A stretch of DNA of 64,000 nucleotides from an uncultured Alphaproteobacteria bacterium (lineage in GTDB: Bacteria; Pseudomonadota; Alphaproteobacteria; Methylaequorales; Methylaequoraceae), in the NCBI GenBank assembly GCA_902522465.1, contig CABYVV010000002.1:65764-129763 (forward strand), given 5' to 3'. The translations under genes and the position numbers were made by a program. Shown here piece by piece: positions 5,425 through 38,697 of the stretch (the stretch's first letter is position 1; every line of letters starts with the position of its first letter). Below the pieces are notes generated by a model. That model was not told the DNA's origin, made no database searches, and worked only from the letters and a program-made list of their open reading frames with translations.

Positions 5425-5547
5425 TTTTTTCTTTGCTAAAATTTAATAACATAAATTTACAGCAAAAGTTATGCCACACTTGCCTAATTAGAATAATACA
5501 ATTTTCTTCAATCACTTAACACTGATCTCTAATAATTTAAAATAAGG

Positions 5548-11012: not shown

Positions 11013-11028
11013 TGGCATGAGGTTTGCA
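11013..11028 (+). promoter_or_regulatory. Sigma54 (-24/-12) promoter of the flgGHIJK(L) operon
   Basis: TGGCATgaggtTTGCA has exactly 10 nt between the GG and GC dinucleotides. It lies about 39 nt upstream of the flgG ATG, in the largest intergenic region of the window. Confidence 0.7.
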
Positions 11029-11066
11029 CATAAATTGCTAAACTTATATCTAGAAAGAGGATTACA

Positions 11067-11855
11067 ATGGCAATTAATGCGATGCATGTAGCAAAAACCG
11101 GTCTAAATGCCCAACAGGTTAGAATGCAAATTATCTCAAATAATTTAGCAAACGTGAACACTAATGGATTTAAAAGAGACAGAGCAAACTTTGAATCCCT
11201 ATTGTATCAGATCATAAGAAGCAGTGGTGCACAAACATCCGTTGATACAGAATTAACTTCGGGCTTTTCAGTCGGTACTGGTGTTAACATCGTGAATTCT
11301 AACAAGTTACATTCACAAGGAAGTATAGTTTCGACTGATAATTCTCTTGATTTAGCCATTGATGGAGGAGGGTTTTTTCAGGTGTTATTACCTGACGGTC
11401 AGGTAGTCTATACCAGAAACGGTGCTTTCTCTAGAAATAATGAAGGTATTTTAACAACAAATAGTGGTTTTATTATTCAGCCTGAAATTGCTATCCCTGC
11501 TGAGGCAACAAAAATAAATGTTTCTGCAGATGGAATAGTATCAGTTCAAATACCTGAACAGGTTGAGGCTCAGGAAGTTGGTCAGCTTCAATTAGCTGAT
11601 TTTCAAAATAGAACTGGGTTACAACCAATAGGAGAGAATTTCTATGTTGAAACAACATCAAGTGGTCCACCCGTTATTGAGAACCCATTTGCGGCAGGTT
11701 TTGGTAAAATCATTCAAGGCGCATTGGAAAGTTCTAATGTAAATGTTGTACAAGAATTAGTTGATATGATTGAAACTCAAAGAGCATATGAAGTAAATTC
11801 AAAAGCAATCACATCTGTTGATGAGATGTTGAGATTTGTAAGTAACAACCTGTAG
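11067..11855 (+). CDS. flgG: Flagellar basal-body distal rod protein FlgG
   Basis: 262 aa. The N-terminus 'AKTGLNAQQVRMQIISNNLANVNTNGFK' and the C-terminus 'SNVNVVQELVDMIETQRAYEVNSKAI' are rod-family signatures. It is followed by flgH and flgI. Confidence 0.95.
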   Translation: MAINAMHVAKTGLNAQQVRMQIISNNLANVNTNGFKRDRANFESLLYQIIRSSGAQTSVDTELTSGFSVGTGVNIVNSNKLHSQGSIVSTDNSLDLAIDGGGFFQVLLPDGQVVYTRNGAFSRNNEGILTTNSGFIIQPEIAIPAEATKINVSADGIVSVQIPEQVEAQEVGQLQLADFQNRTGLQPIGENFYVETTSSGPPVIENPFAAGFGKIIQGALESSNVNVVQELVDMIETQRAYEVNSKAITSVDEMLRFVSNNL

Positions 11856-11857
11856 GA

Positions 11858-12556
11858 ATGAAGATGAGATATTTTTTATTTATTACATTATTTTTTCTTC
11901 AGAGTTGTGCTTCTCACATGCAAGATAGAATTGGTGAGGAATTCCAGAGTATACAACCAGATTACTCTAACTTTGAAAATATAAATAACGCAACTGAAGG
12001 TGCGGTTTACGATGGTGACGGTGGTCTTTTTGCATCCGACAGGAGAGCAAACAGAGTTGGAGATATAATTACGGTAACTTTAGAAGAAACTGTTACAGCC
12101 GCTAACTCAGGATCTGAAACACTAGCTAAATCTGATGCATACACTTTTGATCTTCCAGAGGCATTATTTGGTCCTTCATCATTAATTGGAAAATTATTAT
12201 TTCCTGGAGGGGTTAAAGAAGGAAATCTTCAAGGTGGTACAACTCAAAACTTTACAGGTTCTGGAACTGCAGCTCAAGCTAATAGTATAACGGGTACAAT
12301 ATCAGTAACAATTGTAAGAGTTTATCCAAATGGAAATCTTGAAGTAAAAGGACAAAGAAGGCTTAAATTTAATAGTGGTACAGAATATATCAGACTTGCG
12401 GGCGTTATCAGACCAGATGATATTTCATCAACCAATACGGTTTCATCAAAGAAGGTTGCTGATGCTCAAATTTCTTATACTGGTACTGGTGATATGAATG
12501 ATAGTGTTACAAAGGGATGGTTAAGTAGATATTTTGCTTACGTCTCACCTTTTTAG
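11858..12556 (+). CDS. flgH: Flagellar L-ring lipoprotein FlgH
   Basis: 232 aa. It has a lipoprotein signal with the lipobox 'FLQSC'. '[15 protein letters not shown]', '[30 protein letters not shown]' and 'GWLSRYF' match FlgH. Confidence 0.95.
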
Positions 12557-12563
12557 GATAATT

Positions 12564-13682
12564 ATGAAAAAATTTTTAATGATATTTTGCATTACTTTTC
12601 TAACAAATCAATCAGTCTTTGCTGACAGGATAAAAGATATGGCTTCTTTTGCTGGAGTAAGATCAAATCAACTTGTTGGTTATGGCCTAGTGATTGGTTT
12701 GGCAAAAACTGGTGATGGAAGTGTGAACTTAACTAAACAAAGTATTGCAGCTATGATATCTCAATTTGGTGTGATTGCTAACACAGCAGACATTGATGCT
12801 ACGAACTCCGCAAATGTGATGGTAACGGCAAATCTTCCTCCATTTGCAAAACCAGGTCAAACAATTGACGTAACTGTTTCAACCATTGGAAAAGCAAAGT
12901 CTTTAAAAGGAGGTACTCTTTTGATGACAGCTCTGAAAGGGGCTGATGGAGAAGTTTACGCAATTGCTCAAGGCAATTTAGTTGTTGGAGGATTAGGCGT
13001 TGAGGGTGCTGATGGATCAACTACAATACAAGGAACCCCCACTGTGGGGAGAATTCCTGGTGGAGCAACTGTTGAGAAATTGGTAGAAAATACATTTTTG
13101 GAAAGAGATAATGTTGTGCTAAATTTACATCAAGCTGACTTTTCTCAAGCTAATAGAATTGCAAATACTATTAATGAAACATTTGGACCTGAAGTTGCAA
13201 TTCCAATGGACTCAACCTCAATAAAAGTTAGAACACCTAAAAACCCATCTCAGAAAGTTTCATTTATTGGTTTGCTTGAAAATATAAATTTTGAACCAGT
13301 TACTCCTAAAGCCAAGGTTGTTGTAAATTCAAGAACAGGAACTGTTGTGATAGGTGGCGATGTAAGAATTTCACCGGCAGCGGTTGCTCATGGAAGTTTG
13401 TCAGTAAAAATTCAAGAAGACACTAAGTTGTTATCTGAAGGTACAGGAACGGTGGTTGGAAGTTCTGCTACAGTCTCTGGAACAGCAGCAACAACAGCTG
13501 CAGATACTCAAATAGAAGTTGATGAGGCCCCAGCAAGAGCTTTTGTTTTTGATCCTGGAATAGAGTTGCAAACATTAGTAGATGCTTTAAACGAAACTGG
13601 AACAACAGCAACAGATATGGTCGCAATTCTTGAGGCACTCAGAGAAGCAGGTGCATTAAGAGCTGAACTAATAATAATTTAA
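12564..13682 (+). CDS. flgI: Flagellar P-ring protein FlgI
   Basis: I chose the start at MKKFLMIF (12564) rather than the ORF-track 12534, which would overlap flgH. Signal peptide ends '...SVFA'. The mature '[32 protein letters not shown]' and the C-terminus '[18 protein letters not shown]' are classic FlgI. Confidence 0.95.
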
Positions 13683-13697
13683 CTTATTGGATAAATT

Positions 13698-14003
13698 ATG
13701 GACAACAATCCAATCGCCAAAATCAGACCAATCAATAATTTTGAGCTTTCAACCTCTAAACTTGATAATTTAAATGAAAAATCCGAACTTTCACAGGTTG
13801 CCCAAGAATTTGAATCGTTATTTGTTTATCAAATGTTGAAAAGTGCAAGAAAAGCTAAATTAGCTGAAAGTTTGTTTTCAAATCAAGGTAGCGAAACTTA
13901 TGAGTCTTTATTAGACCAAGAATACTCAAAAACAATTGCCAAAAATCATAGTTTTGGAATTGCTGATGCATTAGTCAGGCAATTTGGAGGAAAAAGAAAA
14001 TAA
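13698..14003 (+). CDS. flgJ: Single-domain FlgJ (rod-binding/rod-capping domain only, no muramidase domain)
   Basis: 101 aa. 'QVAQEFESLFVYQMLKSARKA' and 'YESLLDQEYSKTIAK..GIADALVRQF' match the FlgJ N-terminal rod-binding domain. The ORF ends before any glucosaminidase domain. It sits between flgI and flgK. Confidence 0.85.
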   Translation: MDNNPIAKIRPINNFELSTSKLDNLNEKSELSQVAQEFESLFVYQMLKSARKAKLAESLFSNQGSETYESLLDQEYSKTIAKNHSFGIADALVRQFGGKRK

Positions 14004-17000
14004 ATGCCAAGTTTATTTGATATAGGAAAAAGTGGTCTTCAAGCCTACAGACAATCATTGGCTGTAACAGGTCAGAATATAGCAAACGTCAATACAGACG
14101 GTTATAAAAAAAGAGATGTCGCATTGGAGGAAGTCTCCGGAGCAGGAGGTGGAGTCACAGAGATTTCTGATCAAACTGGTTTGGGAGTAAGAGTTGAACA
14201 AATAAGAAGAGCATTTGATGAGTTTTTAATTGACAAGGCTAGACAAGCCTCTTCAAATTTTAAAAGTGCAGAGTCTTTTTCAGATGAATTAAGAGATTTA
14301 GAAAACTTGTTACTTCCCACAGATAATAATCTTAGTTCATCAATTGGTAATTTTTTTAATTCATTGCAGGATATAGCTGCTTATCCTGACGATCAAGCTG
14401 CAAGAATAGTTGCAATTGAAAAGGGAAAAGATTTGGCAGCTCAATTCAATATGTATTCTGATAGAATTGAAAACCTTAAAAGTCAAATTCTTGATAAAAC
14501 AAAAAATGCTGTCACATCTGTAAATTTAATTTCGACACAAATTTCAAATATTAATGCTAAAATTTTGGCATCAGGGGTTGCAACAGGTGGATCTAACGCT
14601 CTATTAGATCAGCGAGATCTTCTCCTTGATCAGATGGCAGAATTAACACAAATTACAGTTAGGTATGGCAGTAAAGGGCAAGCTGAAGTAAGATTAGGTA
14701 ATACTGGTTCTGGGCCTATAATAATTTCTGATGCCGATAATCCTACAAAAGGAAATGAAACTACAACTAACATAAATGTTTTGGAACAGGCCGGCAGATT
14801 ACAACCAGTTGTTGGTATAGGACAGGTTGCAACAAATCAAATAAAAGCTGGATTAATTAATGGTATGATCAATTCATACGCTCAAGCGGAGGATACAATG
14901 AAAGACATCGATTCTCTAGCTTCACTCTTATCACAAAAATTTAATGAAGTTAATCAGGCTGGTTTAGATCTCGATGGAAAAAATGGAAAACAAATGTTTA
15001 CTGTTTCAAGTCTCGAGGCTGTTGAGAACCCAACAAATAGATCTAGTGTTGGAGTTGCAGTTTTTGTTACTAATCCTTTGGAGATTAAAAATGCTGAATA
15101 TAAAGTTATCTATCATGAAAATGAAGATTTGTGGAAACTCACGTCAGATTTAGATTCAAATGTCACTTCAGGAAAACAAACAATTGATGGTCAGGGTTTT
15201 AAAATTTCTTTTTTCGGTGAGCCATTAGATGGTGATGAATTTTCAATTGTACCGAGTAGTGCCTCTAAAGGGATGGCTTTTTTACTTAATAGGCCCCAAG
15301 ATTTTGCAGCTGGCTCCAAAACTCTTATAAGTTCAAGTTCCTCTAACACAGGAAGCGCCTCACTTGAAGAGATCACACCATTAAAATTTGAGGACAAGAC
15401 CAATATTAAAAATATACAAAGTGTGTTTTCAAATGGTTTAAGTCCTGTCACATCTTCAAAATTTTCAACTGATGGTGGTGCAGCAATTATTCAAGCGGGA
15501 ACATCATTCGTCAATTTAAGTTCATATAAAGCTCAACCTGAAATACAATTTGGACTTTCATCATCTGATTTAACTTCAATAACATCTATAAATGTTACAA
15601 TGGCTGACTCAAGTTCTGTTAACGTTGACCTGACTGGTATTAAATCACTTGAGGAATTAGCTGATGTTTTAAATAGGAGTAGAGACGTTCAAGGAAATGC
15701 TCACAATTTTAGATCTATGGGTCTCTTTGCATCTGGTGGTGGATCAACTCTTACAATTGCAAGTAATGATAAGCAATTTTCTTCAGGAGCAATATCCGCG
15801 GCCTCAACAATTAATGCAAATGTTGTCAATCCGACTGTCACGGCAGCAAGTAAATTACAAATATTTACTAGAGAAGGAAGGCATATTGCTGGTGAGGTTT
15901 TATCGGATTCTGAAATTGCTGAGTTTATGACAGAAGAAAATGGATTCAATAGATTTGCAGAATACAGAGCAGATTATCTCAATGGTACCGGCACAGAAAA
16001 ATATAGGGGTATTGAGGTTTCTCGATCAACTACCGATGGGAATTTTGTTATAAGTTATGGAGCTAATGGTGCTGCAGCAAGTGCACAAAGACATGCTACT
16101 ACTGTTCCTGCTAGCCATGTATCTGCTGCATATACTTTAACAGTAAATTCAACATCAACGGCAAAGTCAAAAAATATCACAGTACCAATTGAATCCTCTG
16201 CTGGTTTTGTAGCAGGACTTATTAATAAAGAAGCCAAAACACTTGGTGTTGAGGCTTTAGCTTCCACAAAAGTAAAAATTTCAGCACCATCTTCTAACGG
16301 GACAGTTTCATTTAATATTTTAAGTAAACCAGGTGTAGGGAATGATGCAGACATAACAGCTTCAATTTTATCAACTGATTTAACAAATCTAGCAAATTCA
16401 ATAAACAATTTTTCGGGAAGAACAGGAGTAATAGCAAATTTATCTTCCGATAAAAAACATATTGTAATGGAAAATGCTGATGGAGATGACATACAAATCT
16501 CTTCGTTTTCCTCTCCTAACACTGTAGAAATGGAAGTACTAAAAAATGACTTTTCATCATTTAGTTCTCCAGTAACCGTAATATTAGATAATACAAATTT
16601 TAAAGCAGCAAGATTTAGTGGAGAATTAGAAATCTCTTCAGCATCTGCGATTAGCACTTCCAATGATGGTGGTTCAACCACTGTTACTGGAACTCAAAAC
16701 GCATTAAAAGATGGTTTTCTGAACATTACTTCTTCAAGTACTGGCGAGGTGAAAACTATTAAGCCAGTTGTTCTTGACGGTGATTTTTCAAATGGACATC
16801 CTGACGGATTAAGTGCATCTAGTTCAGTGTTGTCTTATGGTTTGAAGATTCCAGCTGATGGTAATGGGGCTGAATTTAGTGCAACTGTTGATGTTTCAGC
16901 TTTGGAAGTTTTAGAACCATCTCAAGTTGCAAAAAAAATTGCTGAAGGATTAAGAGCAAACAGCCCATCTGCTGAATTGATTGGTACAGCTGTTGAATCT

Positions 17001-19094
17001 TTACCAAAAGATGGAACAAGTTTTAAAGTGAATCATGATGGTCTTACGTACACTTTAACTATGGAAAATGGAGAGGTTGTTGTATCCGGAGGTGAGAAAG
17101 GTTTAGTTACGGCTTATTTTGAAAATCCAGATCCAATTACTGTAAATACAACTAGCTTGAGTGGGACTCAAACAATTACTTCAACTGAGCATAATCTTGA
17201 AACCGGTGATGCAATTAAATATAATGCAGCTGAGAAAGTCACAGTTGATACAACGGATTTCAGTTCTACTAATACCATTTCCGTTATTAACAGTTTTAGT
17301 GATAATGATCCAGTTGTTTACAAAAAAGGAGGTAATTTACCAATTTCAGGTTTGGTTGATGGTACTACTTATTTTGTTAAAAATAGAACTGCAAATAGTT
17401 TTCAATTATCAGCAACTTCAGGTGGAAGTGTAATAACTATTACAGGTGGTACAGGAGGGAGTGTATCAGATACTTTCGCGAGTCCTCGAAATGGACTAGT
17501 AGACGGACAAACATATTATGTTGTAAAAGTTGATGAACATAATTTTAAACTAGCAAACAATTATACTCTTGCAACGAATAGCACTCCATCAGTTATAACC
17601 ATAGGTTCTAGTAGTGTAGGGGGAAATGCTTCTGATACATTCGATCCTCAAAAAAATCTATATATTTCTGGAGGGAAAACTATTTCAGGATCACAATTTT
17701 CTTTCCCAGTTGACTCTGTAAACGATGAAAATGCAAAATTATTTGGAATGCAAAGTACAAACGTTAAAACCACAATAACTGGTTTGTCTGTAACAACTCC
17801 CGCAGCAAGTAACTCAACACATTTTCATATAAAAATTAAAGATAATACCAATCCAATTGGGGTGTTTGTAAAATCAAATTCTAAAACAATAAATACAACT
17901 GGTGTTGGTGGCTCTTCAACAACTTTAACTTCTACTGGTCATGGTTTTAAAACTGGTGACAAAATAACCTATACTGCAGGAGGAACTCAACTTAACGGTT
18001 TGACGAATGGAACCTCATATTTTGCAAAAGTAGTTGATGCAAATACATTTAGCTTAGCATCATCATTTGCTAATGCAACATCAGATTCTCCAACTCTTAT
18101 ATCATTTGGAGGTGGGAATGGTCATGCCGGAGATACTTTTGCAACAGTTTTTGCAACAGCACTTCTTAATGATAATGCATCAACTCCTGCTTCTGCAGTA
18201 GGAATCACTGCTGAAATTAATCAAGTAAGTGATACTAATGCTCAAATTTCCATTATCAAAGAGGCAGATAAAAAAGAAATTGTTATCGATAGAATTACTT
18301 ACAGTGACGCAGCAACTGCAGAATCTTATGGATTTAAAACTAGTCAATTAAATTTAAATGTTTTAAATGATGAAATAAGGATTAAATCTTTTACATCAGA
18401 TTTATCAGGCTCACATGCTGTTGATTTAGAAGTTCCTTCAAATAGTATAAAATCTCTAATTGGAAATAATTTATCCATTTCGAATATTCCATCTGAAGAT
18501 TTAATTGTTCTTATGACAGGAAATGGTTCAAGAAAAATTGCCTCTGATTATGGAGATGTTCTTCCTAACTTAACCGATGAAGAATTTAAAATTTCAATCG
18601 ATTCAGCAAACAATAGAAAAGTTGAAGTGCTAGATAACAATACAGGTCATAGCATTGCAACAAGATTGATCCCAGATGATGGTATAATTAATGTCGTAGA
18701 AAAATCACTGAGAATTAATGGTGATGCAAAAGTAAATGACTCGTTTACGATATTAAATAATAATGATGGTATTGGTGATAATAGAAATATTTTGAAAATG
18801 ATTGATCTTCAAACCTCAGATGTCAATGGCTTAAATTCTGGAAGTTTTCAGGATATCTTTAATAAAACAGCAACTGAAATAGGAGCTACGGTTAGAAGTA
18901 GTCAAATGGAAGCAGAGGATGCTAGAGCAAGTAAAGACGAAGCTATTGCATTAGAAGATGAGAAATCGGGTGTTTCCCTTGATGATGAAGCATCATCTTT
19001 AATACAGTTCCAACAAGCTTTTTCAGCTAATGCAAGAATAATTCAAACAGCAAGAGAACTTTTTGATTCGTTGATGAGAGTAGTTTCTAGATAA
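14004..19094 (+). CDS. flgK: Giant flagellar hook-associated protein 1 (FlgK), 1696 aa
   Basis: The N-terminus 'SLFDIGKSGLQAYRQSLAVTGQNIANVNTDGYKKR' and the C-terminus 'GVSLDDEASSLIQFQQAFSANARIIQTARELFDSLMRV' are canonical FlgK termini. The ~1400-aa middle contains several flagellin 'IN'-type motifs and a repeated module. It is a single uninterrupted ORF. Confidence 0.9.
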   Translation: MPSLFDIGKSGLQAYRQSLAVTGQNIANVNTDGYKKRDVALEEVSGAGGGVTEISDQTGLGVRVEQIRRAFDEFLIDKARQASSNFKSAESFSDELRDLENLLLPTDNNLSSSIGNFFNSLQDIAAYPDDQAARIVAIEKGKDLAAQFNMYSDRIENLKSQILDKTKNAVTSVNLISTQISNINAKILASGVATGGSNALLDQRDLLLDQMAELTQITVRYGSKGQAEVRLGNTGSGPIIISDADNPTKGNETTTNINVLEQAGRLQPVVGIGQVATNQIKAGLINGMINSYAQAEDTMKDIDSLASLLSQKFNEVNQAGLDLDGKNGKQMFTVSSLEAVENPTNRSSVGVAVFVTNPLEIKNAEYKVIYHENEDLWKLTSDLDSNVTSGKQTIDGQGFKISFFGEPLDGDEFSIVPSSASKGMAFLLNRPQDFAAGSKTLISSSSSNTGSASLEEITPLKFEDKTNIKNIQSVFSNGLSPVTSSKFSTDGGAAIIQAGTSFVNLSSYKAQPEIQFGLSSSDLTSITSINVTMADSSSVNVDLTGIKSLEELADVLNRSRDVQGNAHNFRSMGLFASGGGSTLTIASNDKQFSSGAISAASTINANVVNPTVTAASKLQIFTREGRHIAGEVLSDSEIAEFMTEENGFNRFAEYRADYLNGTGTEKYRGIEVSRSTTDGNFVISYGANGAAASAQRHATTVPASHVSAAYTLTVNSTSTAKSKNITVPIESSAGFVAGLINKEAKTLGVEALASTKVKISAPSSNGTVSFNILSKPGVGNDADITASILSTDLTNLANSINNFSGRTGVIANLSSDKKHIVMENADGDDIQISSFSSPNTVEMEVLKNDFSSFSSPVTVILDNTNFKAARFSGELEISSASAISTSNDGGSTTVTGTQNALKDGFLNITSSSTGEVKTIKPVVLDGDFSNGHPDGLSASSSVLSYGLKIPADGNGAEFSATVDVSALEVLEPSQVAKKIAEGLRANSPSAELIGTAVESLPKDGTSFKVNHDGLTYTLTMENGEVVVSGGEKGLVTAYFENPDPITVNTTSLSGTQTITSTEHNLETGDAIKYNAAEKVTVDTTDFSSTNTISVINSFSDNDPVVYKKGGNLPISGLVDGTTYFVKNRTANSFQLSATSGGSVITITGGTGGSVSDTFASPRNGLVDGQTYYVVKVDEHNFKLANNYTLATNSTPSVITIGSSSVGGNASDTFDPQKNLYISGGKTISGSQFSFPVDSVNDENAKLFGMQSTNVKTTITGLSVTTPAASNSTHFHIKIKDNTNPIGVFVKSNSKTINTTGVGGSSTTLTSTGHGFKTGDKITYTAGGTQLNGLTNGTSYFAKVVDANTFSLASSFANATSDSPTLISFGGGNGHAGDTFATVFATALLNDNASTPASAVGITAEINQVSDTNAQISIIKEADKKEIVIDRITYSDAATAESYGFKTSQLNLNVLNDEIRIKSFTSDLSGSHAVDLEVPSNSIKSLIGNNLSISNIPSEDLIVLMTGNGSRKIASDYGDVLPNLTDEEFKISIDSANNRKVEVLDNNTGHSIATRLIPDDGIINVVEKSLRINGDAKVNDSFTILNNNDGIGDNRNILKMIDLQTSDVNGLNSGSFQDIFNKTATEIGATVRSSQMEAEDARASKDEAIALEDEKSGVSLDDEASSLIQFQQAFSANARIIQTARELFDSLMRVVSR
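17184..18140 (+). repeat. Three copies of a ~55-70-aa protein repeat module inside the FlgK variable region
   Basis: Copies: (17184-17477) 'TEHNLETGDAIKY...ISGLVDGTTYFVKNRTANSFQLSATSGGSVITITGGTGGSVSDTF'. (17478-17642) 'RNGLVDGQTYYVVKVDEHNFKLANNYTLATNSTPSVITIGSSSVGGNASDTF'. (17931-18140) 'TGHGFKTGDKITY...LNGLTNGTSYFAKVVDANTFSLASSFANATSDSPTLISFGGGNGHAGDTF'. Confidence 0.7.
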
Positions 19095-19102
19095 TTAATA
19101 TT

Positions 19103-19118
19103 AGGCATGAAAATTGCT
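19103..19118 (+). promoter_or_regulatory. Sigma54-like motif immediately upstream of flgL (uncertain function)
   Basis: AGGCATgaaaaTTGCT has the correct 10-nt GG-GC spacing. However, the -12 GC is only about 13 nt from the flgL ATG and no SD is visible. It is therefore either a leaderless-type transcript or a coincidence. Confidence 0.35.
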
Positions 19119-19129
19119 AATTTAAACTT

Positions 19130-20959: not shown

Positions 20960-20985
20960 TTAAAAACTAAATAATTACAAAAAAA

Positions 20986-21012
20986 CTTAACAAATCTGAG
21001 TATGGTCGTTTC
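20986..21012 (+). promoter_or_regulatory. Sigma28(FliA)-like promoter candidate upstream of flagellin 1
   Basis: CTTAA-N14-GTCGTTTC lies 53 nt upstream of the ATG. It shares the GTCGTT -10 core with the sites at 26114 and 27334. The -35 is the weakest of the three. Confidence 0.35.
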
Positions 21013-21064
21013 TATTGTAGCTAATGATTTTTAAAGGTTAATGGAAAATAAAGGAGAATAAATA

Positions 21065-21820: not shown

Positions 21821-21838
21821 TATTAAGGAGAAAATAAT

Positions 21839-22597: not shown

Positions 22598-22626
22598 ATA
22601 GATAAAATAATACTATCATAAAAGTA

Positions 22627-22663
22627 AAAAAGGAGACTAAATTGCTTAGTCTCCTTTTTTTTT
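22627..22663 (+). terminator. Rho-independent terminator after the tandem short flagellins
   Basis: The stem GGAGACTAA (22632-22640), loop attgc and stem TTAGTCTCC (22646-22654) are followed by a 9-nt T-run. An A-run precedes the hairpin. Confidence 0.8.
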
Positions 22664-22801
22664 CCCTATTTTTTTTTTTTACTTAATAAAAAAAAATCTT
22701 ATCAGCTTAAATGTCAAAAATATAACACTAAATATCGTATTTTTTTCTTTAAAATTCACAATATGAAGTATGTTTTGGATTTTTTTTCCAAATACATAAT
22801 T

Positions 22802-22817
22802 TGGCATTCTAATTGCA
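22802..22817 (+). promoter_or_regulatory. Sigma54 (-24/-12) promoter of the long flagellin / fliD / fliS unit
   Basis: TGGCATtctaaTTGCA has 10-nt GG-GC spacing. It lies 36 nt upstream of the ATG at 22853, with SD 'aaggag' in between. Apart from the 5-nt spacer it is the same as the flgG promoter motif (TGGCAT-N5-TTGCAcA). Confidence 0.7.
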
Positions 22818-22852
22818 CACAACCTATGTGAAAAATTTAAGGAGAAATATAA

Positions 22853-24412
22853 ATGGTTAGCGTAAGCACAGTAAATACTCACGCATCATTGAAGCACATT
22901 ATTAAGACTGAAAGAGAGATGCTCCAAGCAATGGAGAGAATCTCTTCAGGAAAAAGAATAAATAATGCAGGTGATGATGCAGCCGGTGCAGCAATAAGTG
23001 ATAGAATGTTGGCAACGGTGAGAGCTTTAGATATGTCAATTAGAAATGCATCTGATGTATTGTCTATGGCTCAGGTTGCAGAAAGTGCAATCAATGAACA
23101 CTCACAAGCTTTACAAAGAATTAGAGAATTATCAATACAAGCAGCAACTGATATTTTGAATGCTGAACAAAGAATTTATCTACAAACTGAAGCTAACCAA
23201 TTAATTCAAGAAATGGATAGAGTTGCAAGAGATACCACTTTTAATGAAATCGCTGTGCTAGATGGTACTTTTGCTGATAGACGTTTTCAAATCGGATCTC
23301 ATGAAAGAGAAAAAGCAGTTATCTCCGTTGCTAATATGAGAGTTGATAAAATTGGTGCATACCAAAGTTCAACAAGTATGGATGAAGCGGGAACAGCTGG
23401 AAACCTAGCATCAGAGGGTGTAGTAGGTGCCAATGCTTCTGTTACCAGTAGAGTAGTTGATGGAGATGATCTAACAATTACTGGATTAGTAGGACAAACA
23501 ACTATTGACGTAAAAGCTGGGCACTCAGCAAAAGATATTGTTGAGTTAGTTAATGCTAAATTTGATAATACAGGAGTAAGTGCAACTGCAACTACTACTG
23601 TTAAAATGCAGGTAAATAGTTCTGATGCTGCAACAGATCATGTAGTATCTTTTAATTTATACGGTAAAAATACAACTGCTCAGGCAATCTCTGCAACAAT
23701 TAGTGTTGCGGCAACAGTCGGAGCTTCAGATATGACAAACCTTCGTGATGCCATTAACGCCTACACAGCCACTACAGGAGTGAGAGCAACATTAAGCGCT
23801 GATAAATCAAACATTATATTAGTACAAGATGAAGGCGAAGATTTAATAATTGAAACAATTGATTTTGCAACTGTTACAAATGCTAATACTAAATTTACAT
23901 TTACAGCAATGTCTCAAGATCAAACAGATTCTGCAGCGACACAAATTACTACGGCTGTAGATACAAATCATAATAGTGGTAACACTGATTCAGTGAGATT
24001 TACTGGACAAATTACATTTCACTCTTCGCAAACATTTACAATTGCTGGTAATTCCGGTGGTGGTCTTTATGAAGCTGCACCGGGAACAGCTTCTTTAAAC
24101 CAAGTTGCTTCAATTGACATTAGAACTGTAGCAGGTGCTGTTGATGCTTTAAAAGTAATTGATAGAGCACTTGATAGGGTTCATATGGAACGCGCAAAGT
24201 TTGGTGCAATCATGAGTAGGATGAATGTTGTTATTGACAATTTAACAAATGTGTCAACAAACCAAAAGACTTCAAGATCAAGAATTACAGATGCAAACTT
24301 TGCAGCTGAATCAGCTAGACTTGCTAAATCTCAAATTCTACAACAATCTGGAATGAATATGATTTCTCAAGCATCAAGAACTATGCAAAATGTTTTAATT
24401 TTATTTAATTAA
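22853..24412 (+). CDS. fliC: Canonical long flagellin (class B)
   Basis: 519 aa. It has 'MERISSGKRINNAGDDAAGAAISDRM' and 'LQRIRELSIQAA', a Thr/Ser/Ala-rich central domain with IN-type motifs ('MTNLRDAINAYTATTGVRATLSADKSNIILV'), and the C-terminus 'RITDANFAAESARLAKSQILQQSGMNMISQA'. Confidence 0.92.
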   Translation: MVSVSTVNTHASLKHIIKTEREMLQAMERISSGKRINNAGDDAAGAAISDRMLATVRALDMSIRNASDVLSMAQVAESAINEHSQALQRIRELSIQAATDILNAEQRIYLQTEANQLIQEMDRVARDTTFNEIAVLDGTFADRRFQIGSHEREKAVISVANMRVDKIGAYQSSTSMDEAGTAGNLASEGVVGANASVTSRVVDGDDLTITGLVGQTTIDVKAGHSAKDIVELVNAKFDNTGVSATATTTVKMQVNSSDAATDHVVSFNLYGKNTTAQAISATISVAATVGASDMTNLRDAINAYTATTGVRATLSADKSNIILVQDEGEDLIIETIDFATVTNANTKFTFTAMSQDQTDSAATQITTAVDTNHNSGNTDSVRFTGQITFHSSQTFTIAGNSGGGLYEAAPGTASLNQVASIDIRTVAGAVDALKVIDRALDRVHMERAKFGAIMSRMNVVIDNLTNVSTNQKTSRSRITDANFAAESARLAKSQILQQSGMNMISQASRTMQNVLILFN

Positions 24413-24442
24413 ACTAGTGCTTTTTTAGGACGTTAAAATAGC

Positions 24443-26110
24443 ATGACCTCCGTAAACAACAGACCTGAAATTCTTACTAAGTTAGGTGTCGGATCAGGTC
24501 TTGATACCACCGCACTTATTGAAGCCTTAGTAAATGCTGAAACTGAAGGTGTTAAAGAAACACTAGACAATAAAGAAATTGAGTATAAGGCTCAGATTTC
24601 AGCCTTTTCTCAAATCAAAAATAATTTGAAGACTTTTAATGATAATTTAGAGATTATACAAAGTAATAACGCCCTAGGATATGCAGGATCAACTTCTGAC
24701 AAAACTATTGCAACTTTTACTGTAAATGGAAATCAAGCCTCCCAAGCAGTAAACTCTTCTTTAACTGTAACCTCTCTGGCAACTGCACATACGCTCACAG
24801 GACCGTCTTTGCCTTCGGCAAGTTCAACTGTTGGAGCAAGACAAATTAGTATTTCCTTTGGTACATGGTCTGCAGATCCAACTCAAGGAGGAGGGCAGAG
24901 TCATACCTCCAATGGAATGTCTACAATTACTGTAAATCCATCCTCTACTACTACGTTGATGCAATTAAGGGATATGATAAACAGTGCCGCTTCAGATTCA
25001 AATAGCGATGGTGAGCAAGATGTAACTGCGACAATTTTGTATGATGGTTCAAATTATATGTTATCACTTAAAAGTCAATTCGGAGCAGCTAATGAAATGA
25101 AAATTACCGACAATCATGCATCTTCACCTGTATATGCTTATGATACTTCTGATGGAGCGCAATTAACACAAAGAGTGGCAGGAACAAATGCCGCTTTTAC
25201 AGTTGATGGGATAAGTATGACAAGAACATCAAATAGTATTGATGATTTATTTGCAGGAATGACTTTAGATTTATTGGCAACATCGGATTCGGCTGTAACT
25301 ATTAAAAGTGAAGTTGATCTGGCTTCTGCGAGAAGTGCAATTACTGATTTTGTAACAACTTATAATGATGTAATGAAATCGTTACAAAGCTATAGAGAAT
25401 CTGATCCAACTGATGACGAGAGAAATGGCTTGCTTGCAGGTGATTCATTATTGAGAAGTATTATGAACGAAATGAGAAATAGTAGTGGAACAGCAATTAA
25501 TGGATATGAGGGTGGTCCTTACTATCTATCCAATATGGGTGTAAAGACCATGAGAGACGGAACTTTAAGTTTTGCAGATCCTGCTATGCTAGAAAGACAA
25601 TTTAAAAATAATGCAGAATCTTTGAGAAGTTTTTTTAAAGACCAGATTGTAAGTGATAATACTGATATAATTCCAAAAAGGTACAGCGTAGCAGACACTA
25701 AACCAGGTTCTTATGCAGTATCAGTTAGTTCAGGAACTGCTACAATTGGTGGCGTTTCAACAACTCAATCAGGTTCATTATATACTGTTGCATCAGGAGA
25801 TCCTAATGGAATAGCACTAGAGATCAATTCAAGTAATACGACAGGCACTGTTCATTATGGAAGAAGTTTTATAACTTTATTGCAAGACAAACTTGATACT
25901 TTCTTAAAATTTAATGGTTTAATTTCCAGTAAAGTGGACGGTGCTAACAAACGTTTATCTGCGTTAGCTGAAAAACAATCAAATCTTGAAGATAGAATTG
26001 CATCATTGTATAGTAGGTATGAAACACAATACTCTGCGATGGAAAGCACTATTGCAGGACTAAATGAAACTTCTAGTTTGCTTGAAAACGCTTTTAAAAG
26101 AAACGATTAA
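24443..26110 (+). CDS. fliD: Flagellar filament cap protein FliD
   Basis: 555 aa. 'LGVGSGLDTTALIEALVNAE', 'FTVDGISMTRTSNSIDDLFAGMTLDL' and the C-terminal coiled coil 'RIASLYSRYETQYSAMESTIAGLN' are FliD hallmarks. Confidence 0.92.
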   Translation: MTSVNNRPEILTKLGVGSGLDTTALIEALVNAETEGVKETLDNKEIEYKAQISAFSQIKNNLKTFNDNLEIIQSNNALGYAGSTSDKTIATFTVNGNQASQAVNSSLTVTSLATAHTLTGPSLPSASSTVGARQISISFGTWSADPTQGGGQSHTSNGMSTITVNPSSTTTLMQLRDMINSAASDSNSDGEQDVTATILYDGSNYMLSLKSQFGAANEMKITDNHASSPVYAYDTSDGAQLTQRVAGTNAAFTVDGISMTRTSNSIDDLFAGMTLDLLATSDSAVTIKSEVDLASARSAITDFVTTYNDVMKSLQSYRESDPTDDERNGLLAGDSLLRSIMNEMRNSSGTAINGYEGGPYYLSNMGVKTMRDGTLSFADPAMLERQFKNNAESLRSFFKDQIVSDNTDIIPKRYSVADTKPGSYAVSVSSGTATIGGVSTTQSGSLYTVASGDPNGIALEINSSNTTGTVHYGRSFITLLQDKLDTFLKFNGLISSKVDGANKRLSALAEKQSNLEDRIASLYSRYETQYSAMESTIAGLNETSSLLENAFKRND

Positions 26111-26113
26111 AAA

Positions 26114-26141
26114 CTAAATTATTCTAAAATTTTGTCGTTAT
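26114..26141 (+). promoter_or_regulatory. Sigma28(FliA)-like promoter candidate upstream of fliS paralog 1
   Basis: CTAAA-N15-GTCGTTAT lies 29 nt upstream of the ATG, with SD 'aggag' in between. Compare the enterobacterial TAAA-N15-GCCGATAA. Confidence 0.5.
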
Positions 26142-26170
26142 GCTCTATATAACTTTTTATAGGAGCAGTA

Positions 26171-26566
26171 ATGTCAAATGGAGAAAATACAGATAGCATC
26201 TTTTTAATTGATAACAAAGAAGCTACTGTTAATGCAATTAATAACATCAAGAATATAATAAAAATCACACTTGGTCAGATTGAACAGTTAAAATCAGATA
26301 AAGCTCATAGTGCCGAATTTACTAAATTGTGTGAAAATACAATTAAAAATTTATTCATGTTAATAGATACAATTGACAAGGAGAAAAACTCGTCATTATC
26401 GAAAGATCTTGACTATCTATACAAACATTGTCTTTTTTCTGTAATAAGAGTAAGAGATCATAAAGATTTTGATTTTCTCGACGGTTGTATCCAAATTTTA
26501 GGTGAAATAACTGAAGGTTGGGATAGAGTAGGTTCAGCTGTTGAGAAAGCCCCTGCTTTTGGTTAA
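26171..26566 (+). CDS. fliS: FliS-like flagellin export chaperone, paralog 1
   Basis: 131 aa. 'IKNLFMLIDTIDKEKNSSLSKDLDYLYKHCLFSVIRVRDHKDFDFLDGCIQILGEITEGWDRV' follows the FliS helix 3-4 pattern (L..LD.e.g.el..nL..LY.Y....L..a......l.e....l..l.eaW). It is positioned after fliD. Confidence 0.75.
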   Translation: MSNGENTDSIFLIDNKEATVNAINNIKNIIKITLGQIEQLKSDKAHSAEFTKLCENTIKNLFMLIDTIDKEKNSSLSKDLDYLYKHCLFSVIRVRDHKDFDFLDGCIQILGEITEGWDRVGSAVEKAPAFG

Positions 26567-26572
26567 CTTTTT

Positions 26573-27337
26573 ATGTCCCTAGCATTATACCCAGCTATTA
26601 AACTTGGAGATAACCAAGAAAAGATTAAAAGATCAATATCTAGGCTGACCACTGGATTAAATATTTTAGCGGGTGCAACATCTGGTGAATTTGCTGAAGG
26701 AATTTCTTTACATGCAGAGGGAAAATCAAATCAAAAAGTGATTTCAACTACAAATGTTGGCCTTGATTTGTTAAAGACGGCTGAATCAGCTCTTATAGAG
26801 TTGGCTGCACTTGCTACTCGTTTAAGAGAAATTGGTATAGCAGACACAGTCTCTTCAAATAGCGCATCAGATACCGCAGCGCTGAATGCAGAGGCTATCG
26901 CTGTAAGCGACAGTATTGATGATATTGTATCTACAGCAAAGTTTCATAATTTAGCGCTTTTATCAACTGGTGCGAGAACACTGGCTACAGTCAAAGACGG
27001 AGGTGGAAATACAACTACAATTAAAACTACAGCAGGTATAACAGCCACTAACATAACAGATGCAACCAACTCTAATACTACAGCAGACACTGCAATTGGT
27101 GAAATTGAAACATCATTAGGTCATGTTGCCGGTCATATAAATTCTTTGGGTGCATATCAGAACACAGCTAATGCATTAGCTTCGATTGAATTAGAGTCTG
27201 CAGCAAAATTAATGGATACTAATTTTGCGCTCGAAACAGCAAAATTAATGAAAAAAAACCTAATCCAAAAATATGCCACCTCAATGGTAGCAAAAGCCAA
27301 TGAAATTGAAGAAAATAAAAAATTATTAATTCTCTAA
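26573..27337 (+). CDS. Short, highly divergent flagellin-like protein (class C)
   Basis: 254 aa. 'ISRLTTGLNILAGATSGEFAEGISL', 'LLKTAESALIELAALATRLREIG', 'LGAYQNTANAL' and 'MDTNFALETAKLMKKNLIQKYATSMVAKAN' align with flagellin N and C helices. It starts 6 nt after fliS paralog 1. Confidence 0.7.
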   Translation: MSLALYPAIKLGDNQEKIKRSISRLTTGLNILAGATSGEFAEGISLHAEGKSNQKVISTTNVGLDLLKTAESALIELAALATRLREIGIADTVSSNSASDTAALNAEAIAVSDSIDDIVSTAKFHNLALLSTGARTLATVKDGGGNTTTIKTTAGITATNITDATNSNTTADTAIGEIETSLGHVAGHINSLGAYQNTANALASIELESAAKLMDTNFALETAKLMKKNLIQKYATSMVAKANEIEENKKLLIL

Positions 27338-27360
27338 ACTTTTATTTTTTAGGTCGTTTA
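27334..27360 (+). promoter_or_regulatory. Sigma28(FliA)-like promoter candidate upstream of fliS paralog 2
   Basis: CTAAA-N14-GTCGTTTA lies 16 nt upstream of the ATG at 27377, with SD 'aaggag' following. Confidence 0.45.
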
Positions 27361-27376
27361 CATTAATAAAGGAGTT

Positions 27377-27778
27377 ATGGAAATGAAAAATAAACAAACA
27401 GAACACAAAGAAAGTAAACAAAATCCAAACAATGTGCCAAGCGCACAAGAACAATATAATATAATTCTTAAACTTTATAAAGGTTTGCATGATAACCTTG
27501 AAGAATTGTATAAGAAATCTAAGGATAAAAATTCTTCAACAAAAACTAGTCAATTAGCCTATAAAGTTGACAGAATAGCATCAGGACTTCATCTCACCCT
27601 TAATTTTGAAGATGAAAAGACTGTAAAGATTAGTGAGAATTTCAGAGAATTATATAGACATGTAAGATTTGCTATGAAAATGATTTATGAAAAACAAGAG
27701 TATAAATTTTTGAATTCTGCGCGAGATGTTGCTAGGACTCTTTATCAATCCTGGGCAAAAATAAAACCAACTATTTAA
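27377..27778 (+). CDS. FliS-like flagellin export chaperone, paralog 2
   Basis: 133 aa. 'QEQYNIILKLYKGLHDNLEEL', 'IASGLHLTLNFEDEKTVKISENFRELYRHVRFAMKMIYEKQEYKFLNSARDVARTLYQSWAKI' shows the FliS four-helix pattern. It directly follows the class C flagellin. Confidence 0.7.
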   Translation: MEMKNKQTEHKESKQNPNNVPSAQEQYNIILKLYKGLHDNLEELYKKSKDKNSSTKTSQLAYKVDRIASGLHLTLNFEDEKTVKISENFRELYRHVRFAMKMIYEKQEYKFLNSARDVARTLYQSWAKIKPTI

Positions 27779-27817
27779 CATTTGTTATTTTTTCTTAATG
27801 CCATAGAATAAAATTTA

Positions 27818-29524
27818 ATGGTAGTAAGAATTGTTTCAGTGATTCTGACTGGACTAGTGGTAGGCTCATCAGTAGCAGTGCTAGTCCAAGTCTTTCTTTT
27901 TCTGGTAAACTATCTGTCAAATTTATTAAGGACAGACTACACGGAACTGCTTAATCAACATCACTTTAGTGTAAATGAATTAGTAATAAAAATAATCTTT
28001 TTCTTTTTAATTGTTCCATTTTTAGTTGGTCTTGTTGTTGGTATAATAAGAAATTTTAATAAGGGAAAAAGGTGGCACGGTCCGCCAGACGTCATTCTCT
28101 CAGTTCATAAAGATGATGAAGAGTTAAATGTTAAATCAGGTTTTTTGACATCTATTGCTTCTATTTTATCTATTTCATGTGGAAGCTCTGTGGGTCAATA
28201 TGGTCCCTTGGTGCACTTTGGAGGTACTATTGGTGCTGAGATAAAAAAATTGTTTTCCTATGCACCTGACTACAAAATTTTAGTTAGTTCAGGAGTTGCT
28301 GCAGCAATTTCTGCAGGTTTTGGTGCACCTCTAGCGGGATTAATTTATGCTCGAGAAGTAGTCCTCAGGCATCAATCTCTCGCAAGTTTTTCTCCAATTT
28401 TATTATCATCTATAATATCGTATTTTTTTACTGTTGAAGTCTTTAATTATGAACCCACTTTTGATATTCCATTAGTAACGGGAAACAGCCCAATAAACAT
28501 AATTTTCATAATAATTGGTGGGATCTTTGCAGGACTTATGGCGAGTCTTTATTCGTATCTTTTGACAAATAAAAATTTTAATTTTATGAATAACCTTGGT
28601 TCCAGACCCTATCTTACGCCTGCTTATGCCGGCCTGATTTGTGGAATCATAGCAATTAAGTTCCCAGAAGTAACAGGTATTGGTTCTGAAACAATTAACG
28701 ATTTATTAAATAATAGAGTTGAATTAACTTCAGCTATGATTTTCTTATTCTTAAAGTTATTTTTGACAACTGTTTGTATTCGAATGGGCTTAGTGGGTGG
28801 TATATTTGCTCCAGCTTTATTTTTAGGAGCTAGTTTGGGAGTAATTACAGCAGGTCTTGCATCAATTATTTCAACAGATATCAATCCTTTTTTACTGATT
28901 TTATCGTCTATGTCCGCGCTTGGAAGTTGTATTATTGGCGGACCAATAGCTAATGTTTTGATTATTTTCGAGCTAACATCAAATTACCAAGCTGCTTTGT
29001 CAGCAGGTATCTGTATAGTCGTTGCAACAATTGTTTCATCGCAACTGATAGGACAATCTACATTTGATCAACTTTTAAACAATAGAAATATAGATATAAC
29101 TGTAGGAAGAGACATATTATTTCTTCAAAGAAAAAAGATAAAAGATATTGTAGATAAAAACTTTCTCAGGCTAGGTGGTGAACTTTCAGTAAAAGAAGCG
29201 ATTGAAAAATTTAAAGAACTTGAATGTAGTGAGGGATATTATGTAGGACTTAATGATAAACTCTTGGGAAAGATTTCACTTCCCAAATTATTGTCTTGCA
29301 AATTAGATTCAAAAATAAGAGATGTGAAAAAAACAAAGTTCCTTAAAATAAATGATGAAGAAGATCTGTCAAATACAATTGAAAAATGTAAAGATTTTGT
29401 TGGAGAATCAATCCCTGTGGTAGACAATAAAGGAAAGATAGTAGGAATATTTAGTGAAAATGATCTTTTTGTTAGTTATTTAGAAGCTGAAGAATTTAGG
29501 GCTGACATTGAAACTAAATCGTGA
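27818..29524 (+). CDS. ClC-family anion channel/transporter homolog with a C-terminal CBS pair; non-canonical selectivity-filter residues
   Basis: 568 aa. 'GSSVGQYGPLVHFGGTIG' aligns to the GxEGP motif. 'GGIFAPALFLGA' is the GxFxP motif. 'ELTSNYQ' carries the conserved central Tyr. The C-terminal ~140 aa is CBS-like. The GSGIP position reads 'WHGPPDV'. Confidence 0.85.
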   Translation: MVVRIVSVILTGLVVGSSVAVLVQVFLFLVNYLSNLLRTDYTELLNQHHFSVNELVIKIIFFFLIVPFLVGLVVGIIRNFNKGKRWHGPPDVILSVHKDDEELNVKSGFLTSIASILSISCGSSVGQYGPLVHFGGTIGAEIKKLFSYAPDYKILVSSGVAAAISAGFGAPLAGLIYAREVVLRHQSLASFSPILLSSIISYFFTVEVFNYEPTFDIPLVTGNSPINIIFIIIGGIFAGLMASLYSYLLTNKNFNFMNNLGSRPYLTPAYAGLICGIIAIKFPEVTGIGSETINDLLNNRVELTSAMIFLFLKLFLTTVCIRMGLVGGIFAPALFLGASLGVITAGLASIISTDINPFLLILSSMSALGSCIIGGPIANVLIIFELTSNYQAALSAGICIVVATIVSSQLIGQSTFDQLLNNRNIDITVGRDILFLQRKKIKDIVDKNFLRLGGELSVKEAIEKFKELECSEGYYVGLNDKLLGKISLPKLLSCKLDSKIRDVKKTKFLKINDEEDLSNTIEKCKDFVGESIPVVDNKGKIVGIFSENDLFVSYLEAEEFRADIETKS

Positions 29525-29861
29525 AATCAATACTATTTCTCTGTTGTTTTGATGTGGTTTTTAGTGAAGATATCATCAAATATTTTGTAGCACTTTCACT
29601 ATGAAAATAAATAGGGCTAAAAAGTTCTCTAGCCTTAAAGAATGCCTCAGTGCTAATCCCAATGCTAGGTGCTAACTTTGGACTATATATTTTTCTTTTA
29701 AATAACTCTGAATTTTCCCTATCATAGGAACTCAGATTATGATTATCATCGACTTCTCTAATAATATTCCTATTTACGATCGGATGTGGCACACCTTTTG
29801 CTACATTATCTACAAACTGGTTGGAAACAGGATCCACGTAGTTATAATTAGGATTAATCAT
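29514..29861 (-). CDS. Hypothetical protein (orphan) in the flagellar locus
   Basis: 115-aa ORF that fills the whole ClC-to-fliS3 gap and overlaps the ClC stop by 11 nt. I recognise no motif. It carries a sigma54 promoter motif on its antisense strand, so its coding status is uncertain. Confidence 0.4.
   Translation of the reverse strand: MINPNYNYVDPVSNQFVDNVAKGVPHPIVNRNIIREVDDNHNLSSYDRENSELFKRKIYSPKLAPSIGISTEAFFKARELFSPIYFHSESATKYLMISSLKTTSKQQRNSIDFTI
29787..29802 (+). promoter_or_regulatory. Sigma54 (-24/-12) promoter of the fliS paralog 3 operon
   Basis: TGGCACaccttTTGCT is a full consensus match with 10-nt GG-GC spacing. It lies 76 nt upstream of the ATG at 29878. Confidence 0.65.
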
Positions 29862-38669: not shown

Positions 38670-38697
38670 TACAAAATTTGCATATTTTATGCCAATT

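Follow-up and report, generated by a model that had tools for sequence, protein, structure and literature searches.

Probable Sigma-54 Promoters in the Flagellar Locus

The stretch of DNA analysed here, hereafter the window, comprises 64,000 nucleotides from an uncultured alphaproteobacterium of the family Methylaequoraceae (GenBank assembly GCA_902522465.1, contig CABYVV010000002.1, positions 65,764 to 129,763). The source assembly measures 1.33 Mb, has a G+C content of 30%, is 87% complete and is approximately 94% coding. The window holds a flagellar locus with flgG, flgH, flgI, a flgJ-like gene, flgK, flgL, small and long flagellin genes, fliD and fliS paralogs (Table 1). Four transcription units of this locus, which begin with flgG, flgL, a long flagellin gene and the third fliS paralog (fliS3), are preceded by motifs in which a GG and a GC element are exactly 10 nt apart, as in the -24/-12 promoters that are recognized by RNA polymerase with the sigma factor RpoN (sigma-54). 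These motifs had been pointed out in an initial annotation of the window; their sequences and positions check out, and searches with Pfam and NCBIfam models identify the genes behind them as named there, i.e., flgG, flgL, the 519-aa flagellin and a third FliS paralog. The four motifs are very probably genuine sigma-54 promoters, the first of which serves a flgG-flgH-flgI-flgJ-flgK unit. Together with a fifth site in the window they are likely to be functional members of a regulon of approximately 24 sites, which would form the middle tier of a regulatory hierarchy homologous to that of the Fla1 flagellum of Rhodobacter (Cereibacter) sphaeroides.

The consensus for sigma-54 promoters that Barrios et al. 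reportedly derived in 1999 is TGGCAC-N5-TTGCW. The bare arrangement GG-N10-GC is uninformative in this DNA, with 147 matches in the window, but the strict pattern TGGCAY-N5-TTGCW has four matches there against 0.14 expected, and none of 100 shuffled sequences reached four. The strict matches include the fifth site, on the minus strand in front of a GT2 glycosyltransferase gene of a glycan island, which was overlooked in the initial annotation; its position is not kept in relatives, whose glycan island differs. The whole genome contains 16 strict matches, 11 of which lie at most 150 nt upstream of an open reading frame (ORF) on the same strand. When the two half-sites were placed 1–4 or 6–10 nt apart instead of 5 nt, each spacing gave 0–9 matches genome-wide, with 0–1 upstream of a gene. 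In a scan with a position weight matrix, the top 24 or so sites were nearly all intergenic or upstream of genes and the long flagellin promoter had the highest score in the genome; lower-scoring matches fell inside genes, and low-scoring ones were about as frequent as in shuffled sequence. Between positions 11013 and 29802, the scan recovered only the four flagged sites.

Conservation of the Promoter Sites

The sites were followed in relatives, which are uncultured marine Alphaproteobacteria with inconsistent NCBI labels. The pattern GGCAY-N5-TTGC is found 35–40 nt upstream of flgG in all 45 genomes compared, amid diverging flanks. This set includes SAR116, IMCC14465 and metagenome-assembled genomes (MAGs) labelled Rhodobiaceae or Paracoccaceae, and in the nearest outgroups (SAR116, IMCC14465 and MAGs labelled Paracoccaceae/Rhodobacteraceae) the same promoter precedes flgG genes whose products are 71–76% identical to FlgG of the window. 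Ten genomes of the genus and six other genera retain the long flagellin site, which in those six genera, too, always comes directly behind the hairpin and T-run of the preceding small flagellin gene. For flgL, the site and a distance of 11–13 nt to the start codon are kept in nine genomes of the genus and four other genera; in two of these four, approximately 1.9 kb is inserted between flgK and flgL, yet the site is retained. No flgL was found within the flgG-centred loci of SAR116 and other outgroups. The flgL motif had been called weaker than the other three, but it is as well conserved as they are. Elsewhere in the regulon, the site of a flgF-like rod gene is kept in 23 of 23 genomes.

The fliS3 site lies antisense within the ORF of a divergently transcribed 115-aa protein, as was already noticed in the initial annotation, and falls in codons 20–25 or thereabouts. 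In 19 genomes the ORF is retained at a length of 106–125 aa, and its C-terminal half is conserved. When 17 distinct sequences representing nine or more genera were compared, the sole fully invariant block was TGGCA.A....TTGC, and the peptide encoded opposite to it varies (AKGVP, ANHMP, AIGMP). Since third-codon positions are invariant while the peptide varies, the constraint acts on the DNA. The Ala and Met/Val-Pro residues of the 115-aa protein seem to be determined by the promoter, and not the other way round.

Among 25 genomes of the family, rpoN was found in 19 and flgI in 20, and the two genes co-occur throughout. Their absences are almost all in MAGs that are 54–80% complete; the exception is genome G024 (84% complete), in which flgI was not found and other flagellar genes are present.

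Extent of the Regulon

The approximately 24 sigma-54 sites of the genome comprise about 16 at flagellar genes, five at glycan or modification genes, those of glnB, amtB and hsp20, and two without a known gene. The flagellar sites precede an operon headed by a gene for a FleT-like activator, fliK, the fliO-P unit, the operon after flhB, flhA, a gene for an LPP20 lipoprotein (a family that we take to be that of FlgP), flgB, the flgF-like rod gene, flgG, flgL, the long flagellin gene, fliS3, a lytic transglycosylase gene and bactofilin genes; two weaker sites complete this group. The genes of the glycan and modification group encode an RfbF-like nucleotidyltransferase, a ThDP enzyme, the GT2 glycosyltransferase, a methyltransferase and a TPR protein. 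Sites of this group adjoin the flagellar locus (genome positions C2:57166, C2:60182, C6:62437 on the minus strand and C19:7229). Their place in the regulon points to a joint regulation of flagellar glycosylation and assembly.

Hits are thus not restricted to flagellar genes, a point that the initial annotation had put up for checking. Both glnB and amtB are classical NtrC targets, and glnB is RpoN-dependent in Sinorhizobium meliloti (PMC3616915). The hsp20 site is of a weaker sigma-54 type, with TATGC in place of TTGC (Table 1); a better match, TGGCAATAAATTTGC, stands 102 nt ahead of the Hsp20 ortholog in another genus. The hsp20 leader contains a long palindrome (TGACATATTGACAT/TATGTCAATATGTCA), for which an Rfam search gave chance-level matches only. 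A strong site on the minus strand at C1:177711-177726 has no ORF behind it, and the 156 nt downstream fold into stem-loops (z = -3.0). This site may drive a sigma-54-dependent small RNA; the candidate RNA has no Rfam match. Another site, C5:50652-50669 (minus strand), lies between rpoN and the transglycosylase (SLT) gene and is followed by AAGGAG and a 56-codon ORF; the spacer between the two genes has no match in Rfam. In this lineage, one sigma-54 system would be common to flagellum, flagellar glycan, nitrogen and heat-shock genes.

Sigma-54 drives just part of the flagellar locus, because the small flagellin genes, fliD, fliS1 and fliS2 carry promoters of the sigma-28 type. The earlier proposal that it drives the flagellar units therefore stands for flgG, flgL, the long flagellin and fliS3, and fails for these other genes. 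The sigma-28-type motif CTAAAC-N13/15-GTCGTTTA precedes the small flagellins, fliD, fliS1 (with the third small flagellin) and fliS2. In five other genera CTAAAC-N13/14-AGTCGTTTA is kept before the small flagellins, and the motif of fliD is kept in six. Among similar sites elsewhere in the genome is one in front of a possible flgM, a 90-aa ORF on the minus strand at C5:54484-54756.

RpoN and Its Activators

The motifs had led to the prediction that the genome encodes RpoN and at least one enhancer-binding protein, and a genome search found both. The RpoN protein scores above the cut-offs for its activator-interacting, core-binding and DNA-binding domains (PF00309, PF04963 and PF04552), and it contains the sequence ARRTVAKYR, which we take to be the RpoN box. 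Four proteins contain a sigma-54 interaction domain (PF00158), and the GAFTGA motif is intact in three of them: a FleQ-like protein, a FleT-like protein and NtrC. NtrC has receiver, AAA+ and helix-turn-helix (HTH) domains; the fourth protein is NtrX-like and lacks GAFTGA. The FleQ-like protein (353 aa) has its AAA+ domain at the extreme N-terminus, followed by HTH_8, and is encoded in a flagellar cluster on contig C5. The gene for the FleT-like protein (385 aa, AAA+) runs divergently from that of the FleQ-like protein and is preceded by a sigma-54 site of its own; HTH_8 was not matched in this protein in the Pfam scan. On the 3' side of the gene follow fliE, fliF, fliG, fliH, fliI and, in the position of fliJ, an ORF of 137 aa; this sixth gene of the operon has no Pfam match. 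The rpoN gene lies approximately 20 kb from the activator pair, on the same contig and among flagellar genes.

Neither flagellar activator matches the receiver domain family Response_reg. Their scores are 272 and 298 bits with the FlbD model and 253 and 270 bits with the FlgR model, against a cut-off of 750 bits for each, and the largest partial scores of both proteins are to generic or FlbD models. Activators of the FlbD or FlrC type were rejected because of the missing receiver domain and scores far under the cut-offs. Of the activator types that had been proposed (FlbD-, FleQ- or FlrC-like), only the FleQ part is retained, in the form of the FleQ/FleT type of R. sphaeroides.

Besides RpoN, the genome encodes FliA, whose gene lies in the third flagellar cluster and whose score exceeds the TIGR02479 cut-off, and two sigma factors that were assigned by size as RpoD-like and RpoH-like. 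With four sigma factors found, the set of regulators is not minimal in the way of Pelagibacter, with which the initial annotation had compared it, since the whole family is flagellated and carries rpoN.

Candidate boxes for an activator were found at some of the promoters. A perfect GTCA-N6-TGAC lies at -111 of the FleT-like promoter, at -78 of that of the fliO-unit and at -126 of that of the LPP20 lipoprotein; half-sites GTCA and TGAC at other spacings were absent near all sigma-54 sites. When one mismatch was allowed, eight boxes were found in the 9.6 kb around the sites, where approximately 1.8 are expected. Boxes occur near five to six of the 24 sites, including the long flagellin, where the block GTCAAAAA..TAACAC around the box is conserved in the genus. 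GTCA-N6-TGAC is the Pseudomonas FleQ consensus GTCaNTAAATTGAC (PMC6120874; PMC8125075). Most sigma-54 sites have no recognisable GTCA-N6-TGAC within -300 to +100, those of flgG, flgL and fliS3 among them, and the part that the box plays in the mechanism is therefore tentative.

The regulation would probably proceed as follows. RNA polymerase with RpoN would form a closed complex on the GG and GC elements. The FleQ-like activator would bind upstream boxes of the GTCA-N6-TGAC type and switch on the operon of the FleT-like gene with fliE, F, G, H, I and (J). The FleQ-like and FleT-like proteins, probably jointly, would open the promoters of flgB, the flgF-like gene, flgG, fliK, flhA, flgL, the long flagellin, fliS3 and the flagellar glycan genes. 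Later, FliA (sigma-28) would transcribe the small flagellins, fliD, fliS1 and fliS2. This gives a near-complete wiring diagram of motility for uncultured, small-genome marine Alphaproteobacteria, with a promoter class for each gene and candidate activators and sites, in a lineage that retains four sigma factors.

Promoters Fused to Start Codons

The distance between GC element and start codon is bimodal. It amounts to 11–13 nt at seven of the 24 sites, namely 12 nt at flgL, the transglycosylase, a bactofilin, the flgF-like gene and glnB, 13 nt at the methyltransferase and 11 nt at the TPR protein, and to 24–107 nt at the others, most of which (fliS3 is an exception) show a purine run that resembles a Shine-Dalgarno sequence. 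For seven of 24 sites in a 3-nt bin, the binomial P is approximately 5e-6. The closeness of the flgL site to its ATG, which the initial annotation had remarked upon, is therefore a geometry that recurs at six other sigma-54 sites. By naming convention the C of the GC element is position -12, and therefore the predicted transcripts begin at the AUG or 1–2 nt before it; at flgL and the six other sites, the mRNA would be translated without a Shine-Dalgarno sequence. All seven fused start codons are ATG, and leaderless translation requires an AUG start (PMC3616915). The start codons are secure: that of flgL is right because the TIGR02550 alignment begins at residue 3 (score 231.8 bits, cut-off 127.2), and the N-terminus of the PII protein is the canonical MKKVEA. 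The fused geometry is conserved across genera for flgL and for the flgF-like gene. The latter has it in 22 of 23 genomes from ten genera, and in four genomes two extra codons keep the ATG at 12 nt. In some relatives (loci L008, L009 and L016), a different gene of 396 aa lies in the variable island approximately 2.4 kb upstream of flgG and has its own sigma-54 site with an ATG 11–12 nt after the GC; the fused geometry is thus reused in variable DNA. An ATG placed 11–13 nt behind the GC at seven sites lends indirect support to transcription starts at the distance expected for sigma-54.

Judged from its geometry only, this arrangement implies leaderless mRNAs. We consider it somewhat more probable than its opposite that in this family of small marine Alphaproteobacteria about one third of the sigma-54 promoters are fused to the start codon in such a way that enhancer-dependent transcription yields leaderless mRNAs, and that the fliS3 promoter, within a divergent coding sequence, shapes the amino acids of the latter. 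Our literature search turned up no publication in which leaderless mRNAs are connected to sigma-54 promoters. If the start sites are confirmed, these genes would provide a clean example from nature in which leaderless translation is coupled to transcription of the enhancer-dependent kind, and a useful rule by which start codons and sigma-54 regulons of such genomes could be annotated. When the positions ahead of start codons were scanned for TATAAT-like hexamers, no clear indication of leaderless genes driven by sigma-70 emerged. Of the 349 genes whose upstream gap measures 60 nt or more, only approximately one fifth have a tetramer that resembles a Shine-Dalgarno sequence at -14 to -8, and initiation independent of Shine-Dalgarno sequences may be common in this genome.

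Alternative Explanations

Several points weigh against a sigma-54 tier of the Fla1 type and have to be considered along with the alternatives to it. The matrix was trained on the genome's own sites and is circular; it was used only for ranking, whereas neither the strict pattern nor the spacing control is subject to this bias. The motifs could be functionless chance matches in AT-rich DNA, in which the bare GG-N10-GC is common and low-scoring matrix matches arise at about the rate of shuffled sequence. This is extremely unlikely, as the initial annotation had argued from the recurrence of the motif: the strict pattern far exceeds its expectation and, in up to 45 genomes, the motif is an invariant island amid diverged intergenic DNA. 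Chance can be ruled out because the spacing control, which is independent of any model, works only with a 5-nt spacer, and together with the conservation data it led us to reject this explanation. Conservation itself might have other causes at two of the sites. The fliS3 site overlaps a conserved coding sequence, which possibly contributes to its invariance, and a sigma-70-like TTGGAA-16-TATAAT at 29821-29848, between this site and fliS3, could serve the gene. As flgL begins just 35 nt past flgK, it may also be expressed by read-through from flgK. The sites of fliS3 and flgL could then be kept for the sake of the antisense 115-aa protein and of a signal at the flgK-flgL junction, with both genes expressed from other promoters or by read-through. 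We regard this as very improbable, since the bases of TGGCA and TTGC are invariant around the fliS3 site where the peptide is not, the flgL site and its spacing to the ATG persist where flgK is approximately 1.9 kb away, and the same geometry is seen at six unrelated genes. Sigma-70-like consensus matches are not enriched between 10600 and 30400 (80 found, 79.8 expected) and a scan for them therefore cannot assign alternative promoters.

The sigma-54 promoters could also be real but obey another activator logic, with a single activator or with a two-component system like FlbD/FliX, FlrBC or FleSR in place of a FleQ/FleT pair. The partial scores to generic or FlbD models would agree with this, a hetero-oligomer of the two activators was deduced from gene order alone, and the FleT-like protein has 125 residues before its AAA+ domain that match no Pfam family and have no recognised fold, whereas FleT of R. 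sphaeroides is said to lack such a part. What makes another logic unlikely is that neither flagellar activator has a receiver domain, that their FlbD and FlgR scores are far from the cut-offs, and that the gene order, with an activator without HTH, fliEFGHI(J) and a divergent activator with HTH, is that of R. sphaeroides (PMC7277832). We therefore keep a FleQ/FleT-type pair as the preferred assignment.

Other Features of the Locus

The coordinates of the features in the window are given in Table 1. The 182-aa, 115-aa and 110-aa ORFs are conserved, and throughout the family each keeps its place within the flagellar locus. They gave no usable match with Pfam or NCBIfam, the 110-aa ORF having one chance-level NCBIfam match. 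In the 115-aa protein, the C-terminal part carries the conserved motif ...STEAFLKSRxLFxPxYFHNE..TKYxMIS. The order of fliS3 and the 110-aa ORF is kept in the family, and transporter genes come next. A gene for a ClC chloride channel with CBS domains lies between fliS2 and fliS3, and seven other genera of the family have it in this position as well. FlgK (1696 aa) is much longer than usual, and so is a 1301-aa protein with a rod/hook-type N-terminus (contig C9:21508-25413), which is probably FlgE. An internal region of FlgK has approximately 30% identity to the long flagellin, as seen from tblastn cross-hits. The leader of the first small flagellin (21013-21064) and the orthologous leaders in every genus examined contain two to three repeats of GTTAATGGA or GTTAATGA, which may be the binding site of a post-transcriptional flagellin regulator. 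The window gave no Rfam match at gathering thresholds.

Table 1. Promoters, genes and other elements of the window, in order of position.
Feature	Position (strand)	Sequence	Remarks
GT2 glycosyltransferase gene	4285-5424 (-)		Glycan island
Fifth sigma-54 site	5461-5476 (-)	TGGCATAACTTTTGCT	36 nt 5' of the GT2 glycosyltransferase gene
Sigma-54 site, flgG	11013-11028 (+)	TGGCATGAGGTTTGCA	GG-N10-GC; predicted start ~11039; leader ~28 nt with Shine-Dalgarno AGAAAGAGGA
flgG	11067-11855 (+)		Pfam
flgH	11858-12556 (+)		Pfam
flgI	12534-13682 (+)		Pfam
flgJ-like, rod-binding	13698-14003 (+)		Pfam
flgK, giant	14004-19094 (+)		Pfam; 1696 aa
Sigma-54 site, flgL	19103-19118 (+)	AGGCATGAAAATTGCT	GG-N10-GC; A replaces T 5' of GG; predicted start ~19129
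flgL, hook-filament junction protein	19130-20410 (+)		Pfam; TIGR02550
182-aa ORF	20411-20959 (-)
Sigma-28-type promoter, two small flagellins	20985-21012 (+)	CTTAAC-N12-GGTCGTTTC
Small flagellin gene	21065-21820 (+)
Small flagellin gene	21839-22597 (+)
Terminator hairpin	22626-22660		16 bp, T/A runs on flanks; splits small flagellin unit from long flagellin promoter
Candidate activator box	22713-22726	GTCAAAAATATAAC	One mismatch to GTCA-N6-TGAC; 90 nt upstream of GG of flagellin promoter
Sigma-54 site, long flagellin	22802-22817 (+)	TGGCATTCTAATTGCA	GG-N10-GC; predicted start ~22828; leader ~25 nt with AAGGAG
Long flagellin gene	22853-24412 (+)		519 aa; Flagellin_N, Flagellin_IN, Flagellin_C
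Sigma-28-type promoter, fliD	24410-24436 (+)
fliD	24443-26110 (+)
Sigma-28-type promoter, fliS1 and third small flagellin	26115-26141 (+)
fliS1	26171-26566 (+)
Small flagellin gene (third)	26573-27337 (+)
Sigma-28-type promoter, fliS2	27335-27360 (+)
fliS2	27377-27778 (+)
ClC chloride-channel gene	27818-29524 (+)		CBS domains
115-aa gene	29514-29861 (-)		Divergent from fliS3; variable N-terminal part houses fliS3 promoter
Sigma-54 site, fliS3 and 110-aa ORF	29787-29802 (+)	TGGCACACCTTTTGCT	GG-N10-GC; predicted start ~29813; leader ~65 nt
fliS3	29878-30264 (+)		Pfam FliS
110-aa ORF	30265-30597 (+)		End of last flagellar unit of the window
Hsp20 gene	38144-38572 (-)
Weaker sigma-54-type site, Hsp20	38679-38695 (-)	TTGGCATAAAATATGCA	TATGC replaces TTGC; 107 nt upstream of the Hsp20 gene

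Comparison With Known Flagellar Hierarchies

The findings support a hierarchy that runs from sigma-54 to sigma-54 to sigma-28, of the Fla1 type and in a new, streamlined marine lineage, and its design would thus be familiar. In R. sphaeroides Fla1 (RpoN2, FleQ, FleT and FliA), FleQ and sigma-54 activate fleT-fliEFGHIJ, FleQ and FleT activate the next class, which includes fliA, and FliA activates fliC and fliD (PMC7277832). The likeness, which rests on domain content and gene order and not on a direct comparison of proteins, extends to an rpoN gene in the flagellar locus, to an activator without HTH that heads a fliEFGHIJ operon with a sigma-54 promoter and is divergent from an activator with HTH, and to rod, hook and export genes behind sigma-54 sites with fliD and the small flagellins behind sigma-28-type promoters. 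On the other hand, one rpoN was found here and R. sphaeroides has four, and here a long flagellin, a fliS paralog, glycan genes, bactofilins and a lytic transglycosylase lie behind sigma-54 sites. FleT of R. sphaeroides lacks an N-terminal domain and HTH (PMC10084136), whereas the FleT-like protein described here has the extra N-terminal residues, and seven promoters abut the start codon.

The four-tier polar hierarchies of Vibrio and Pseudomonas (FlrA/FleQ, FlrBC/FleSR and FliA) likewise have two sigma-54 tiers followed by sigma-28. As with flaA of V. cholerae (PMC12607845), one flagellin belongs to the sigma-54 tier and the others to the sigma-28 tier. With Pseudomonas the genome shares the candidate box, which equals the FleQ consensus, and an LPP20 lipoprotein gene behind a sigma-54 site. 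Unlike in these bacteria, the putative master activator lacks the N-terminal domain of FleQ, and receiver domains are absent from the flagellar activators. In Caulobacter crescentus, also an alphaproteobacterium, sigma-54 with FlbD and FliX drives late flagellar genes (classes III and IV), including flagellins. FlbD of Caulobacter is a receiver-domain protein, and that organism is not known to have a FliA tier; the genome described here differs in both respects, as its flagellar activators have no receiver domain and a FliA gene and sigma-28-type promoters are present.

For the promoters fused to start codons, the comparison is with S. meliloti, in which 171 leaderless mRNAs were mapped that have the start codon at the 5' end, always AUG, and no Shine-Dalgarno sequence (PMC3616915). 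The predicted transcripts of the seven fused genes have the same form, starting at AUG without a Shine-Dalgarno sequence, with a link to sigma-54 that is deduced here from geometry alone. The conserved fusion of promoter and start codon, together with the promoter that is embedded in a coding sequence, is what goes beyond the textbook design of these systems.

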